NCBI GenBank assembly: GCA_015064855.1 | Contig: SVRK01000002.1 | Location: forward strand, 117,256 to 181,255 | Reading direction: 5' to 3' | From: Oscillospiraceae bacterium | GTDB lineage: Bacteria > Bacillota > Clostridia > Oscillospirales > CAG-272 | DNA: 64,000 nucleotides | In this document: positions 43,094 through 57,740 of the stretch, in pieces | Position numbering within the stretch: position 1 is the first letter of the stretch | Layout of the letters: each line of letters opens with the position of its first letter | Made by a program: the position numbers and the translations under genes | Notes under the pieces: model-generated | Databases searched by the model: none | The model's input: the letters and a program-made list of their open reading frames with translations, nothing else | What the model was told of the DNA's origin: nothing

Positions 43094-43098
43094 GCATT
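43094..43098. repeat. Left target-site duplication GCATT
   Basis: Matches 57736-57740. Confidence 0.85.
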
Positions 43099-43311
43099 TG
43101 TTTTTGGGCATAACCCATTAACCACAAAAGGCAAAATTGAATAATCAAATCAGACCTTGAAGGAGTTTTCCTTTGAGGTCTTTTTTTACTCAAAAAGTGC
43201 CGTAAAACCTTGATTTTCGGGCGAAAGTGTGAATAAAATAATTGTTTTATCTTCATTTAATGACGATAAAAAACTTTGCCCCGATAACGATAGAAAGGTT
43301 TGTCAAAAACA
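43099..43311 (+). repeat. 213-bp terminal unit, copy 1 (TGT...ACA)
   Basis: Identical base for base to 57523-57735 in the same orientation; has its own 8-bp terminal inverted repeat TGTTTTTG/CAAAAACA. Confidence 0.95.
43152..43187 (+). terminator. Terminator inside the terminal unit (can serve guaA)
   Basis: agacct-tgaagga-gttt-tcctttg-aggtct followed by a U7 tract. Confidence 0.75.
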
Positions 43312-43329
43312 TAGTATATTTCAAAAGTA

Positions 43330-43440
43330 TGTTTTTGGGATGATATTTCGCCCCCAAAATGCTTGAATTCCATTTGCTTTTTGGGAAAATCCATCTCCCA
43401 TTTTCGTTTTTGGGAAAATTACAAATGTTTTTGGGAAACT
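43330..43440 (+). repeat. Repeated TTTTTGGGA motifs, probable TnsB-binding sites upstream of tnsA
   Basis: Copies at 43330, 43378, 43406 and 43426 that resemble the terminal TGTTTTTGGG. Confidence 0.6.
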
Positions 43441-43488
43441 TTTGGGGATTATTTTAATCACATAAAAAACAAAAAGGAAGGTGCAAAA

Positions 43489-43833
43489 ATGAGAAACAAA
43501 AACTACAAAGGACGATGCGAAAAACGAAGTTTAAGCAAATGTCAAGGAGTATGCAGAACGTTTGATGCTATTCAATACGCCTATGCCGACATTCTTCAAA
43601 ACAGCGAGAATATCAAAGAATTTCGGTGTAATATCCCTCTCGATGCTCTGACTATCGGAGAGTATATGACGGATTTTGTTTGCGTAAAATCGGACGGTGA
43701 TATGATGGTTAGAGAGTGCGTATATCGCAAATTGCTTATGAAGCCTTTAACTATAAAATTGTTAGATGCTTCAAGGGAGTATTGGCAAAGACACGGTATA
43801 ACGGACTGGGGGATTGTTGTGGATGAAAAATAA
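43489..43833 (+). CDS. Short TnsA-like endonuclease-fold protein (114 aa)
   Basis: MTDFVCVKSDG..MVRECV resembles the TnsA TTDF...Q-x-K core; first gene of the operon, overlaps tnsB; RBS AAGGAAGG. Confidence 0.7.
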   Translation: MRNKNYKGRCEKRSLSKCQGVCRTFDAIQYAYADILQNSENIKEFRCNIPLDALTIGEYMTDFVCVKSDGDMMVRECVYRKLLMKPLTIKLLDASREYWQRHGITDWGIVVDEK

Positions 43834-45652
43834 ACTATTCAAATATGGTGATGGTATTATTAGAATTCTAAAAGCCACAGACAATAGTTTTTTTATTGTT
43901 GATTGTATCAAAAAAACCATGCCAAGATGGATTGATAAAGCGGATATATTCAATTATACAGAATGTACTGAGGCGGATTTGTTATCTATCACAAATACGG
44001 TTCTTTGTGATATAGAATCTCTAGATGTCATAAGCAAACGAAAAATGCACGAGCGATATACTTTGATTGCCGGAGTGTTGCCATTTGTAGATAACGAAAA
44101 GAAGCGCAGCGAAGCAATTTCGATTATTGCGGATGATAAGAAAATCAGTAAACAAACCATACGGAATTATTTATATCTTTATTTGGTTTATCAAGATATT
44201 GCCGCTCTTGCTCCCAAATCACAAACGACTGAAAAAGAGTTATCGCAAGATGAAAAGAATATGCGCTGGGCATTAAATAAATTCTTTTATACTACCGATA
44301 AAAACAGTCTACATACAGCCTATACAATGATGCTAAAAGCAAAGTATTGTGACGGTTGCGGTTCTCTCTTTTCTGAATATCCCTCGTTCTATCAATTCCG
44401 TTATTTTTACCGTAAACACAGAAAAATGCAGAATTATTATATTTCAAGAGACGGATTGAAAAATTACCAGCGCAACAATAGACCGTTGCTGGGTGACGGT
44501 GTACAAGCCTTTGCATCCTCGGTTGGCGTTGGTATGCTTGATTCAACCATATGTGATATATATTTAATCAACGATGGCGGAAATCTCGTTGGCAGACCTA
44601 TTTTAACGGCGTGTGTGGATGCTTATAGTGGTTTGTGTTGCGGTTATTCGCTCTCGTGGGAAGGCGGCGTATATAGCCTTAAAAGCCTTATGAGCAACGT
44701 TATTACAAACAAGGTCGATTGGTGCAAGCAATTTGGAATTATCATCAATCAAGCAGATTGGAATTGTTCTTCACTTCCTGCAACTCTTGTGACCGATATG
44801 GGCAAAGAATACGCCTCTATGACCTTTGAACAAATAGCGGATTTAGGCGTTACCATCGTAAACTTGCCACCATACAGACCGGAATTAAAGGGCGTTGTGG
44901 AAAAGTTCTTTGATATAGTACAAAGCCTATATAAACCGCATTTGAGGGGTAAGGGTGTTATAGAATCCGATTATCAAGAGAGAGGCGCACACGATTATAG
45001 GAAAGATGCTTGCTTGACTATGGCGAGTTTTGAAAAAATTCTGTTGCATTGCATTATATATTACAATGCAAAAAGAGTTATTGAAAACTTTCCGTACACT
45101 GCGGAAATGCTATCAAAAAACATAGAACCATATTCTGCTCGTATATGGAATTATGCCATAAATCAGCCTGGGGCGAATCTTATTACAACAGATATTAAAA
45201 CACTAATGCTAACACTATTACCAAGAACAAACGGCACATTCAGCCGTAAAGGGTTAGCGGTCAACAAATTGAGGTATTCCAATCCCGATTATACGGAAAG
45301 TTATTTGAACGGTGGCACGGTTACAGTGGCGTATAATCCCGATGACGTTTCACAAGTATGGTTAATAGATGATGGCGTGTATATCGTGTTTGAATTGATA
45401 GAAAGCCGCTTTATAGGCTGTAATTTGGCACAAGTAAGCGATATGCAAGTAAATCAAAGAGCCATTATTAAAAACGCTTCTACGGCTAATTTACAGGCTC
45501 AAATCGACCTTGCAGAACACATAGAAGCCGTTGCACATTCGGTATTCTCTGAAGGTGATACTTCAATCAAGCAAATTCGGAAAACCAGACAAAGAGAACA
45601 AACCAAAACACACATTGATTTTATGAGAGGTACAGATAATGATTGCTATTAA
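43823..45652 (+). CDS. tnsB: TnsB-like DDE transposase (Mu-transposase C-terminal family)
   Basis: LDST, VDAYSG, TDMG.EY, PYRPELKGVVEKFF catalytic motifs; Mu_C-like YNPDD tail. Confidence 0.9.
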   Translation: MKNKLFKYGDGIIRILKATDNSFFIVDCIKKTMPRWIDKADIFNYTECTEADLLSITNTVLCDIESLDVISKRKMHERYTLIAGVLPFVDNEKKRSEAISIIADDKKISKQTIRNYLYLYLVYQDIAALAPKSQTTEKELSQDEKNMRWALNKFFYTTDKNSLHTAYTMMLKAKYCDGCGSLFSEYPSFYQFRYFYRKHRKMQNYYISRDGLKNYQRNNRPLLGDGVQAFASSVGVGMLDSTICDIYLINDGGNLVGRPILTACVDAYSGLCCGYSLSWEGGVYSLKSLMSNVITNKVDWCKQFGIIINQADWNCSSLPATLVTDMGKEYASMTFEQIADLGVTIVNLPPYRPELKGVVEKFFDIVQSLYKPHLRGKGVIESDYQERGAHDYRKDACLTMASFEKILLHCIIYYNAKRVIENFPYTAEMLSKNIEPYSARIWNYAINQPGANLITTDIKTLMLTLLPRTNGTFSRKGLAVNKLRYSNPDYTESYLNGGTVTVAYNPDDVSQVWLIDDGVYIVFELIESRFIGCNLAQVSDMQVNQRAIIKNASTANLQAQIDLAEHIEAVAHSVFSEGDTSIKQIRKTRQREQTKTHIDFMRGTDNDCY

Positions 45653-56429: not shown

Positions 56430-56769
56430 CCAGAAAACAATTAAAATTAAAAAAGTTCCTTGTAATGATATAGACCTGTATACCAAAATTGATTTGCCTA
56501 CTTTGCAAAAGGCTATGCAAGAACTAACCACAATGGGCGAAATGAAACTCTGGCTTTATTTGGCAAAGAATCAAGACAATTATATTTGCGAATTAAGTTT
56601 AGAGCATTGTAAGAAATTCGGATTAAAAACCGATGCGTACCATTCCGCAGTAAAAAAACTAATTGAAAAAGGCTATTTAGTTCAACAAAACGGAAACAGA
56701 TATACTTTCGTTGAAAATGGTCAATCTACGGAAAAACCACAGACAGTATATGGATTTTCCACAGGATAA
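56416..56769 (+). CDS. Winged-helix protein, replication-initiator-like
   Basis: KLWLYLA.N...LS...FG....Y..AVK.LIEKGYL pattern seen in RepL/phage replisome HTH proteins. Confidence 0.45.
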   Translation: MSYPNQKTIKIKKVPCNDIDLYTKIDLPTLQKAMQELTTMGEMKLWLYLAKNQDNYICELSLEHCKKFGLKTDAYHSAVKKLIEKGYLVQQNGNRYTFVENGQSTEKPQTVYGFSTG

Positions 56770-57156
56770 TATAGGCAAAAACCATAGAGAAATATAATAT
56801 TAATATTACATATATAGTACAATAGCATTTGATTGTCATTACTATATTATCATTGGTTGAGATTGCTTATAAATTTTCTTTGCTTCTATCTCAACCAATG
56901 TTACATAATCCTATTTTTGTATTGCAATTTTTCTGCTGGTTAATAGGATTATGTAATCAATATTATGTTTCGGTGAAATGTTGTCGTGATTTTACTAAAT
57001 GTTTGTTATTTTTATTGAATTATTAAGCATTAAAAAGTACGAAACTTTCGATGGTTTTGAGTGTTTCGGGAAATAAAAGATGCGAAATATTGAAGGTTTT
57101 TATTTACAAAAATAAATCGTTCAGAGTGAAGAAAAACATATAAAAGAGGTACAAAA

Positions 57157-57456
57157 ATGAATAAAAGCGATATTATAAAAGAATTATCAAATAGAATTTA
57201 TGGGCATGAGGAAGATTCTGCCGTTAAGCAATGCACAAAATTCTGTGACACACTGGTTGAGATTTTTTATGATTATGTATGCGTTTTGGAAGAAAAAATA
57301 ACATGGCAAAATTTTTTAACTGCCGAGGTGGTTAATCGCAAAGAGAGACGAGGCAGAAATCCAAATACAAATGAAGTTGAGACATTCCCACCGGTGCAAA
57401 CTCTTAAAATTAGACCCAGTAAAAAAATGAAAGATTTTTTGAAATCGTTGAGTTAA
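57157..57456 (+). CDS. HU/IHF-family DNA-binding protein
   Basis: MNKSDII.EL; RKERRGRNPNT...P....F/RPSK arm motif. Confidence 0.8.
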   Translation: MNKSDIIKELSNRIYGHEEDSAVKQCTKFCDTLVEIFYDYVCVLEEKITWQNFLTAEVVNRKERRGRNPNTNEVETFPPVQTLKIRPSKKMKDFLKSLS

Positions 57457-57522
57457 ATTCTCTTTCTGTGGTTGCAATTTGGGTAAAAGTATGATATAAT
57501 ACATACACAAGGTTTGATACTA

Positions 57523-57735
57523 TGTTTTTGGGCATAACCCATTAACCACAAAAGGCAAAATTGAATAATCAAATCAGACCTTGAAGGAGTTTTCCTTTGA
57601 GGTCTTTTTTTACTCAAAAAGTGCCGTAAAACCTTGATTTTCGGGCGAAAGTGTGAATAAAATAATTGTTTTATCTTCATTTAATGACGATAAAAAACTT
57701 TGCCCCGATAACGATAGAAAGGTTTGTCAAAAACA
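57523..57735 (+). repeat. 213-bp terminal unit, copy 2 (TGT...ACA)
   Basis: Identical to 43099-43311; followed by TSD GCATT. Confidence 0.95.
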
Positions 57736-57740
57736 GCATT
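57736..57740. repeat. Right target-site duplication GCATT
   Basis: Matches 43094-43098. Confidence 0.85.

Follow-up and report, generated by a model that had tools for sequence, protein, structure and literature searches.

The window, by which we mean the whole stretch of DNA that we analyzed, spans 64,000 nt of an Oscillospiraceae bacterium (GCA_015064855.1, contig SVRK01000002.1, positions 117,256-181,255, forward strand), and it carries a 14.6-kb island past the end of guaA with the following features.

42031-43092, plus strand: 3' part of guaA (GMP synthase; Pfam GMP_synt_C 3.8e-35)
43094-43098: left copy of the TSD GCATT, directly 5' of unit 1 (read from the sequence)
43099-43311, plus strand: unit 1 (U1), a 213-bp mini-transposon, TGT...ACA, direct repeat of unit 2
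43312-43488, plus strand: backbone start; TAGTAT repeats the end of the backbone in inverted form
43489-43833, plus strand: tnsA-like gene, 114 aa, nuclease domain alone (AF2 model, Foldseek)
43814-45652, plus strand: tnsB, DDE transposase, 612 aa (Pfam Mu-transpos_C 3.2e-08)
45639-46874, plus strand: tnsC, AAA+ TniB-type regulator, 411 aa (Pfam TniB 1.6e-13, AAA_22)
46871-48352, plus strand: tnsD/tniQ target selector, 493 aa (Pfam TniQ 1.7e-22, weak TnsD match)
48373-57456: variable cargo, including DUF6431, an XRE HTH, a YpsA-SLOG protein, and an HTH/HNH-like protein
52433-53122, minus strand: serine recombinase, cargo
57157-57456: HU, cargo
57472-57500, plus strand: P_distal, outward-facing promoter reading into the unit (TTGCAA, 17 nt, TG-extended TATAAT)
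57501-57522, plus strand: leader plus the end of the backbone; CAAGGTTTGAT is the complement of the unit terminator's 5' arm
57523-57735, plus strand: unit 2 (U2), identical to unit 1 (repeat comparison)
57736-57740: right copy of the TSD GCATT, directly 3' of unit 2 (read from the sequence)
57828-57858, plus strand: probable native guaA terminator, pushed 14.6 kb away by the insertion (terminator prediction, same-genus comparison)

The 213-nt copies at 43099-43311 and 57523-57735 are 100% identical, lie in the same orientation, and start 14,424 bp apart. Each begins with TGTTTTTG and ends with CAAAAACA, and the TGT and ACA termini are the exact limits of the identity between them. Their inner flanks are unlike (TAGTA 3' of copy 1, TACTA 5' of copy 2), and the 5-bp TSD GCATT is confined to the outer ends of the island, a match with a chance probability of about 1/1024. 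An earlier, sequence-only reading of this DNA had described identical, co-oriented copies with a TSD at their outer ends only, and had placed tnsABCD and the cargo between the copies and inside neither; direct reading confirmed the first description, and the ORF and Pfam positions confirmed the second. The unit occurs in just these two copies in the whole assembly (2.02 Mb, 38 contigs). It holds no transposase gene, and its sole ORFs of at least 60 aa are two on the minus strand that partly overlap each copy. Unit 1 has 2+2 TnsB-site-like repeats (TGTnnnnGGGCA../..GGCAAA..TATC), with an intrinsic terminator at its center (43152-43187) and, at 43210-43239, an internal site that weakly resembles a promoter.

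The guaA stop codon (TGA, 43090-43092) is followed 6 nt later by the start of unit 1, and the end of guaA is presumably the attachment site read by TnsD. Same-genus genomes have guaA, a short intergenic region, and then the same downstream gene as in the window. In all six samples, the Logan contigs stop at the edges of the unit and overlap there by 30 nt, and thus the flank-to-flank connectivity through the repeat rests on the original assembler; backbone depth in these samples was 1.0-1.25x the flank depth.

The AF2 model of the TnsA-like protein had a pLDDT of 88, and its best Foldseek matches were to Tn7 TnsA (1t0f/1f1z, TM 0.79, N-terminal domain); the C-terminal domain is absent. Two of the three catalytic residues (E...D...K) are replaced, E by Q29 and K by V78, in a low-probability hhalign alignment to canonical TnsA that pairs SDLE with DAIQ and QTK with ECV. 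Q29 is invariant in 12 homologues, and the lysine position holds V (I or C in two). On this profile alignment and the predicted fold, the protein appears to be a nuclease-domain remnant that lacks an intact E...D...K active site. TnsB matches annotated plasmid TnsB genes that adjoin TnsA at 26% identity across 99% of its length (tblastn 3e-44, residues 6-609). The order tnsB followed downstream by tnsC/tnsD is common to 30 or more relatives, and the TnsA-like gene is kept in the relatives examined. Conservation does not extend to the cargo. A serine recombinase occurs in some family members only, at variable positions, and most of the relatives examined have no recombinase in reach of the locus.

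TnsB relatives at 45-96% identity share the layout of the window island, in which the stop codon of guaA or ppdK is followed by a unit with inverted ends and a terminator, a short tnsA-tnsB-tnsC-tnsD, cargo, an outward promoter, and a second unit. In these relatives the inverted ends of unit 1 are perfect over 23-25 bp. All relatives with a TnsD of 42-51% identity insert 6-7 nt past the guaA stop (L019, L022, L031, L050, L052, and the window), and the attachment gene follows the TnsD clade, being guaA at 42-51% identity and ppdK at about 30%; the metagenome loci included guaA in 14/80 and ppdK in 3/80. The recurrence of the layout indicates that the island is not an accident of one genome. We found no published description of such an element in the literature and no family member in PLSDB. 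Many contigs of other assemblies start k-1 nt inside the unit (for example L016, 119 nt, in a k119 assembly), which looks like a sign that the unit is repeated in those assemblies as well, and in 28 of the 80 metagenome contigs less than 1 kb of sequence precedes tnsB.

Homologues with a double-unit structure, which the sequence-only reading had predicted, were present in two isolate genomes, Anaerotruncus sp. G3(2012) (units 235/249 identical, TSD ATTTT/ATTTC) and R. cellobioparum DSM 1351 (305/305 identical), and in a 6-kb metagenome element, L229 (463/463 identical, TSD CCACG). Other pairs are non-identical (A. mesophilus 293/305, P. arboris 92%, G214 about 75%), so that identity of the paired units held in the window, L229, and R. 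cellobioparum and did not extend to four relatives, at 75-96%. Matching TSDs are lacking in two double-unit elements. Given these and the non-identical pairs, recombination among units must also occur.

Solo units are common, including in genomes where no tnsB was found. The expectation of solo units with a TSD at guaA was borne out by a guaA locus with CCAAA, and a further solo unit lies past ppdK with ACAGC. We also found molecules with a single unit. An 11-kb circular contig (L239; 55-bp terminal overlap) contains exactly one full unit and, like the window element, no recognizable replication gene; contigs from other samples (L243 and L232) are permuted versions that cross its joint, and its unit and tns genes are integrated past guaA, at 98% identity, in five other contigs. 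The contig L230 carries the junction of backbone end, unit, and backbone start of the L229 element at 99.9% identity, and junctions of this form occur in 17/80 metagenome loci. Four jumbo phage contigs of 182-217 kb hold exactly one unit each, and in the one that we inspected (L153) phage genes lie on both sides of it. Molecules in which the unit joins backbone end to backbone start, another expectation of the earlier reading, are thus represented in relatives by the L239 permutations, the 17/80 loci, and the jumbo phages. Circular and junction contigs could also be yielded by tandem arrays or by pruned low-coverage host edges in assembly. Because the jumbo phages and the 11-kb circle keep one unit, with conserved junctions on both sides, the single-unit state appears to be a maintained form.

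At the start of the backbone (43312-43488), four or five TTTTTGGGA/TTTTGGGG motifs come after TAGTAT, and these resemble the terminal TnsB site and, lying ahead of tnsA, are candidate TnsB operator sites; a promoter scan of this segment found no sigma-70-like promoter. At the other end, at least 15 of the 30 genomes with a family member, and phage contigs too, share the pattern TATAAT-N6-9-AAGGT-N7-11-TGT. The last 6 nt of the backbone, ATACTA, mirror its start. Across the family, the 4 nt of backbone flanking the unit form co-varying inverted repeats (43/48 matches versus 33.1 with shuffled partners, 3/5000), and both inner junctions are conserved in relatives. Since these symmetric backbone bases co-vary, we argue that the inner ends are functional. 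A secondary idea is that the backbone-end promoter and leader might override the unit terminator, such that the tns genes would be on only in the free form; when the full-length P_distal transcript was folded, the terminator was preferred at equilibrium.

We consider it probable that an "inside-out" Tn7-like element, in its integrated state, occupies 43099-57735, and that it integrates by forming a cointegrate from a circle or phage carrying a single unit. The sequence-only reading had suggested that a mini-transposon sits on a circular backbone which also encodes the transposase, and the double units, solo units, and single-unit molecules of relatives support it. More generally, a family of circles and giant phages probably enters the chromosome by copying a mini-transposon of ~200-450 bp that lies beside Tn7-type transposase genes rather than enclosing them, so that a copy ends up on either side of the insert. 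What we observed is the architecture and its conservation, together with solo units, free single-unit forms, and the loss of TnsA catalytic residues; from these we infer replicative strand transfer and a route of excision. Only the 213-bp unit (U) would be bounded by transposon ends, with tnsA, tnsB, tnsC, tnsD, and the cargo on the adjoining backbone (B). When free, the element would be circular (in some relatives, an entire phage genome), with one U linking the end of B to its start. TnsD would recognize the guaA end, and TnsB would nick both 3' ends of U and join them to the target 5 bp apart. Because the crippled TnsA would be unable to cut the other strands, the donor would remain attached, and replication through U would then produce the cointegrate guaA-TSD-U-B-U-TSD. 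Later recombination between the two units, RecA-dependent or possibly via the serine recombinase carried by some members, would free the circle, and a solo U, still flanked by the TSD, would stay behind. A TnsA without two of its three catalytic residues fits replicative transposition: type V-K CASTs, which lack TnsA, make cointegrates, as Tn7 with a catalytically dead TnsA reportedly does in the work of May and Craig in 1996. The identical units, TSD, and overall structure in the window are compatible with a donor-target fusion that duplicates the transposon.

Alternatively, TnsABCD may deposit a solo unit with which a circle or phage later recombines its own unit, either homologously or through a resolvase, in a Campbell-type entry, so that the whole replicon never transposes. 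This would give the same final structure and TSD. It would also suit the common solo units, the pairs that are often non-identical or of different types, as if resident and incoming units had recombined, and the serine recombinase of the window element and several relatives. Even so, we think it unlikely. Cut-and-paste of a solo unit from a one-unit circle would destroy the donor, and with an inactive TnsA the first transposition event already gives a cointegrate. Moreover, pairs at 75% identity are not explicable by recombination, most relatives examined have no recombinase within reach, and the perfect identity and perfect TSD of the window and L229 are what a single replicative event predicts.

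We regard it as distinctly unlikely that the island is an ordinary compound transposon, moving whole via its outer ends, by cut-and-paste or replicatively, with inner ends that are relics and circles that are by-products of repeat recombination. The TSD does enclose the entire 14.6 kb, elements with non-identical units still appear intact, and compound transposons flanked by direct IS repeats are well known. However, relic inner ends should decay, yet unit 1 keeps its perfect inverted ends family-wide, the backbone bases next to the unit co-vary symmetrically, and the jumbo phages and 11-kb circle hold a single unit with both conserved junctions; in addition, four competing ends would mostly mobilize 213-bp units alone. 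Finally, a 213-bp unit exceeds typical short reads, many related assemblies break at the unit repeat, as the Logan contigs do, and both the measured depth and the assembly graph would be the same if a separate circle of the 14.2-kb backbone plus one unit had been threaded into a chromosomal solo unit past guaA, but such an artefact is very improbable, since the 238.6-kb contig runs through both copies, implying read-pair or long-read support, the non-identical double unit of Anaerotruncus cannot be mis-threaded, L229 has the same structure, and the biological conclusion of a solo unit plus a one-unit circle would stand regardless.

Returning to the inside-out element, we give its fullest form slightly less than even odds: that these are undescribed, widespread Tn7-derived integration modules of Clostridia and their phages, with a 200-460-bp mini-transposon, external tnsABCD, and a nuclease-dead TnsA, by which episomes from 5.5-kb minimal circles to ~200-kb jumbo phages lysogenize at guaA/ppdK through obligate replicative transposition, with the transposase genes under a promoter and antiterminator that depend on the junction and are whole in the free form alone. 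If the cointegrate reading is true, a product that Tn7-type systems usually form as an unwanted side reaction would here be the intended outcome in nature, and the transposon would have shrunk to a docking cassette, with whatever shares its circle, up to a 200-kb phage, as the payload. Phages would gain a further, site-specific way into lysogeny, one that relies on a transposase. The rules for delimiting such islands would change as well: surveys built on a left and a right end would label the phage or backbone as "cargo" or overlook the element altogether. Orphan 200-450-bp repeats past guaA and ppdK would be explained as solo footprints. The family also points to a small system, replicative by nature, with which very large DNA could be placed at a safe site in the chromosome, and the conserved arrangement of promoter, leader, and terminator may act as a switch, itself testable, that tells the free from the integrated state.

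Several known systems share parts of this design. In IS26 pseudo-compound transposons and translocatable units, a complete small element in direct repeat likewise flanks a passenger, the circle is one copy plus passenger, and integration is by cointegrate formation, as proposed here. The IS26 transposase, however, is of the IS6 family and encoded inside the repeated element, with no dedicated chromosomal attachment site and an 8-bp TSD, whereas ours is Tn7-type and encoded outside the 213-bp unit, which sets the family apart from IS26-type elements. Tn5053/Tn402 (TniA-TniB-TniQ-TniR) has a Tn7-related replicative pathway, a TniQ selector, and a serine resolvase, but it places conventional inverted ends around the tni genes, has no TnsA-like protein, and keeps its res site and resolvase as a fixed core. 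In our family the TnsA-like gene is conserved and the recombinase is optional cargo of variable position, and so we do not assign it to that group. Mu-like phages and IS21 reactive junctions are similar in that a Mu/Tn7-type DDE transposase, with an AAA+ partner, inserts an entire replicon or phage. Mu ends lie at the genome termini and enclose the phage, while the free forms of our family have just one unit, in an internal position; fusion of replicons by IS21 requires that the donor hold two abutted copies, and L239 and the four phage contigs hold exactly one full unit, which does not match a tandem reactive junction.

A further comparison is with Tn7 and Tn7-like transposons (TnsABC+TnsD, attTn7 downstream of glmS). 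These and the family have in common TnsB, TnsC, and TniQ/TnsD homologues and a protein with the TnsA fold. In both, the termini are TGT...ACA, the subterminal sites are repeated, and the TSD is 5 bp long (GCATT, CCAAA, ACAGC, or CCACG in the family). Insertion is orientation-specific in both and occurs a few nucleotides past a conserved gene's stop codon, with the tnsA-proximal end toward the gene. Unlike Tn7, whose genes are enclosed by one left and one right inverted end, the family element has a complete copy of a mini-transposon at each boundary, the two in direct orientation, and its tns genes lie outside the end-bounded segment; its 114-aa TnsA is without the C-terminal domain and the intact E...D...K of Tn7, and its attachment genes are guaA or ppdK. 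The order of target, TSD, transposon copy, donor backbone, transposon copy, and TSD is the geometry of the cointegrates made by dead-TnsA Tn7 and type V-K CASTs, and the presumed cause, no 5'-strand cleavage, is also the same. In those systems, however, cointegrates arise in the laboratory or as by-products that are not wanted, whereas here cointegrate formation is apparently the normal mode of integration, with the genes carried on the donor backbone.

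Direct examination of the window upheld the description given by the sequence-only reading, which had claimed two same-orientation copies of a 213-nt unit with a 5-bp target-site duplication (TSD) restricted to their outer ends, and tnsABCD and cargo located between them. The copies (43099-43311 and 57523-57735) are 100% identical, with the identity extending to the TGT and ACA termini and no further. The left junction reads guaA...GAGTGGGAGTGA-T-GCATT followed by TGTTTTTGGGC, the right junction reads ...GTCAAAAACA followed by GCATT-TGCG, and GCATT occurs only at the outer flanks of both copies. 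The inner flanks are unlike each other, with the ACA of copy 1 followed by TAGTAT and the TGT of copy 2 preceded by ATACTA. No third copy was found in the whole assembly (2.02 Mb, 38 contigs). The 14.6-kb element, whose DNA between the units we call the backbone, carries the following features:

43152-43187 and 57576-57611: intrinsic terminator with a 13-bp stem, one per unit
43489-43833: tnsA-like gene, 114 aa
43814-45652: tnsB
45639-46874: tnsC
46871-48352: tnsD/tniQ
52433-53122, minus strand: serine recombinase, in the cargo
57472-57500: P_distal, outward promoter TTGCAA-17-TGnTATAAT toward unit 2, at the far backbone end

The 177 bp from unit 1 to tnsA hold four or five TTTTTGGGA/TTTTGGGG motifs resembling terminal sites, and no sigma-70-like promoter was found there. 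The cargo (about 9 kb) includes the serine recombinase and HU; it also contains a 49-nt direct repeat (51933-51981 and 54509-54557, 86% identity, 2,576 bp apart) with similar promoters upstream, and metagenome depth is raised 2-3 times at 54094-54620. The only Rfam match to the unit was below threshold (trpB ncRNA motif RF04312, 28.3 bits versus a gathering score of 59), spanning the unit's left half through the terminator (57526-57614); it was absent from the loci of six relatives and is probably a chance match.

We compared this layout with that around relatives of TnsB (45-96% identical), which lie on 38 contigs from genomes, 11 from IMG/VR and 80 from metagenomes. Wherever DNA upstream of tnsA was present, the order was a host stop codon, a few nucleotides, a unit of 210-460 bp, a conserved T(A/G)G(T/A)G..., TTTTTGGG motifs and tnsA. 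These units have inverted ends of their own, typically TGTCGTAGGGCAATGTGATTTAT / ATAAATCACATTGCCCTACGACA, with two sites of about 24 bp per end and a terminator in the centre. The attachment gene follows TnsD, being guaA where TnsD is 42-51% identical to that of the window and ppdK at about 30%. The backbone end is likewise conserved (-35, TATAAT, ..CAAGGT.., ..TAC(T/C)A, then the unit's TGT) in Propionispira arboris, Anaerotruncus, Ruminiclostridium cellobioparum, A. mesophilus and many MAGs, and at least 15 of 30 carrier genomes have backbone-end/unit junctions marked by the pattern TATAAT-N6-9-AAGGT-N7-11-TGT. The family is sparse yet broad, occurring in 4 of the roughly 398 other genomes that represent species of the class, spread over three families. 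A contig from another genus (L010 1-124, genome G109) begins with a unit fragment 100% identical to the window's, and in metagenome contigs (runs X7 and X8) the unit follows another guaA end (..GAGTGGGAATGATTTCAC followed by TGT) and lies ahead of right flanks that differ too, which indicates recent spread among hosts. Recombinase genes vary in position: one contig has a serine recombinase gene between tnsA and tnsB (L030 1334-1738), and another carries a homologue of the window's recombinase, 56% identical (L024 8141-8788).

The reading had further predicted double-unit homologues, solo units bearing TSDs and one-unit free forms, and all three turned up among the relatives. Double units were present in Anaerotruncus sp. 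G3(2012), R. cellobioparum DSM 1351 and a metagenome contig, L229. The Anaerotruncus element (ppdK-ATTTT-[unit]-tnsABCD...-P_distal-[unit]-ATTTC, 10.4 kb) has units matching at 235 of 249 positions and, since they are not identical, the pair cannot be an assembly collapse. In R. cellobioparum, 305/305 identical units lie after guaA (L031 8986-9290 and L137 2763-3067), 45.6 kb apart on one scaffold, while L229 is a minimal element, CCACG-[463 bp]-tnsABCD-P_distal-[463 bp, 100% identical]-CCACG. The backbone of L024 is bounded by the right part and the left part of a unit, many contigs start k-1 nt inside a unit (119 nt, for instance, where the assembly was k119), and in 28 of the 80 from metagenomes tnsB is preceded by less than 1 kb; contig starts in or near the unit are the signature of a repeated unit. 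Solo units were found directly after guaA (G029, 93% identical, CCAAA on both sides) and after ppdK (G014, a related unit, ACAGC on both sides), and no tnsB was found in either MAG.

Free forms, in which one unit joins the backbone end to the backbone start, appeared as a circular contig, its permutations, junction-form contigs and phage contigs. The circular contig L239 is 11,101 bp long, its ends overlap by 55 bp, and it has one unit and, mid-contig, a backbone-end/unit/tnsA junction; two contigs from other samples (L243 and L232) cross its end-to-start joint and are therefore circular permutations of it. Its unit and tns genes are integrated, at 98% identity, after guaA in five other contigs, and L230 carries the L229 element in its junction form (99.9% identical). 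The junction form occurs in 17 of the 52 metagenome contigs, among the 80, that have at least 1 kb upstream of tnsB. Tandem arrays could be an alternative source of the junction and "circular" contigs. We recognised no replication or transfer genes on the window's backbone or on the 11-kb circle, and PLSDB held no plasmid form (best TnsB match, 28% identical).

Four IMG/VR contigs, 182-217 kb long and 85-100% complete by CheckV, each contain an interior P_distal-unit-tnsA-tnsB-tnsC-TniQ module and exactly one full unit, and a fifth has unit halves at its bounds. In the one that we inspected (L153; IMG/VR 3300045988_166216, 204.9 kb), the module at 9028-13870 has nucleotide-metabolism genes on one side (ribonucleotide reductase, thymidylate synthase, DHFR) and lysis and tail genes on the other (endolysin, tail fibres). 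The TniQ of this module and of those in three sister contigs is short (270 aa). The backbone of these IMG/VR members is a jumbo phage.

Given a free form with one unit and an integrated form with two units and a TSD, the unit must either be duplicated on insertion, giving a cointegrate, or recombine with a unit already at the site. Under the first alternative, a one-unit episome would integrate by replicative transposition, and duplication of its unit would produce the cointegrate. Three observations favour this replicative route. First, the TnsA-like protein has the predicted fold of the TnsA nuclease domain (pLDDT 88; top matches 1t0f/1f1z, TM 0.79), a link that needed structure prediction because a sequence-only search of the short protein against PDB gave no match. 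Profile alignment with canonical TnsA (SDLE-DAIQ, SDF-TDF, QTK-ECV) puts Q29 in place of the active-site E and V78 in place of K, with D62 kept; all 12 TnsA-like homologues share Q29 and have V, I or C at position 78. Tn7 without TnsA cleavage switches to cointegrate formation, and the predicted fold with its replaced residues would favour the replicative route. Second, the unit is bordered on either side by 4 backbone nucleotides that form inverted repeats and co-vary from clade to clade (ACTA/TAGT, ACCA/TGGT, TATA/TATA), matching at 43 of 48 positions versus 33.1 with shuffled partners (3/5000), and at 8/8 in the phage and 6/6 in the window. The inner junctions thus appear to be under selection, which also favours the replicative route. 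Third, paired units are perfectly identical up to their termini in the window, L229 and R. cellobioparum, and this favours the same route.

On the strength of these three observations, we consider obligate replicative integration of a one-unit episome fairly probable. Campbell-type entry at a resident solo unit, the second of the two alternatives that the unit counts allow, is unlikely when set against the same observations, and an ordinary compound transposon is more doubtful still. Other candidates fell away: an IS21-like donor with abutted tandem units, because free forms carry a single unit; a conventional element running from the TGTTTTTGGG motif at 43330 to a distinct far end, because the outer unit ends carry the TSD (no inverted CCCAAAAACA end was found near 57522 or further downstream); and a coincidence of repeats or tandem sites (a MITE together with a separate element), because both unit-side junctions are kept down to about 55% TnsB identity.

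Not all sites are regular. Unit pairs are 75-96% identical in four relatives, and the outer TSDs do not match in A. mesophilus or R. cellobioparum (GTGTG versus CGCCG in the latter), which suggests rearrangement or recombination between separate insertions. In Propionispira arboris DSM 2179, the 110 bp after the guaA stop, terminator included, are duplicated with 100% identity on both sides of the element, one copy between guaA and unit 1 (L039 9077-9188) and the other on a second contig, following a unit 2 that is 92% identical (L063 6698-6805). The duplicated stretch has the appearance of a 110-bp "target duplication" enclosing the element, for which wide-stagger strand transfer and recombination between insertions at two positions are possibilities. 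A full unit of one type abuts the right half of another type's unit ahead of tnsA in G217 (L104 10574-10950), and a distal unit ends after about 64 nt in G210 (L099); both are products of decay or re-insertion at ppdK. Together, the irregular pairs, TSDs and partial units speak for a site at which recombination is frequent and insertion happens repeatedly. In a genome of the same genus (G251, L170), a segment of about 220 bp starting with a guaA 3'-end copy (GGAATGACTTGAGCG...) is repeated at least 2 times after guaA and could have been left by another element that uses this site.

By Logan contigs from ten runs, six faecal metagenomes contain the element. These contigs end at the unit, where they overlap by 30 nt, so they prove no connectivity through the window's repeat, and no solo or empty joint was reported in them. 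The run search listed no nanopore data with the element, and RNA runs matched it only weakly. Backbone depth was 1.0-1.25 times flank depth and unit depth 2.6-6 times backbone depth; extra units must therefore be present in those samples.

We also considered how the unit might regulate transcription. The leader from P_distal to the unit (CAAGGT(C/T)..) is complementary to the 5' arm of the unit terminator (..GACCTTG), and a helix of 6-11 bp is present in 18 elements. Helix cells pair at 69%, versus 63.8 +/- 1.6 in shuffles (0/500) and 27-41% in slid registers, with a covariation score of 0.192 versus 0.123 (0/500); with hand-anchored segments and related sequences, these statistics are supportive, not conclusive. 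Nascent RNA (57506-57590) is predicted to fold into the leader helix (-20.7 kcal/mol, z -3.3), and the complete RNA to favour the terminator over it. If the helix acts kinetically, transcription from P_distal would cross the unit and, where the element is free, carry on into tnsABCD, and transcripts running in from guaA would end in unit 1. We offer such regulation tentatively, as a secondary hypothesis.

A full-text literature search found no published description of a unit-flanked architecture with external tnsABCD; TnsA-less Tn7-like elements with resolvases have been predicted, in general terms, to be replicative (PMC8649781). The element agrees with Tn7-like transposons in its proteins, termini, TSD and attachment-site logic, but departs from them in two defining features: its TnsA is predicted to be inactive, and no single pair of left and right ends encloses its genes. 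By analogy, it would work like the cointegrates of TnsA-dead Tn7 or V-K CASTs, and its geometry resembles that of IS26 translocatable units.
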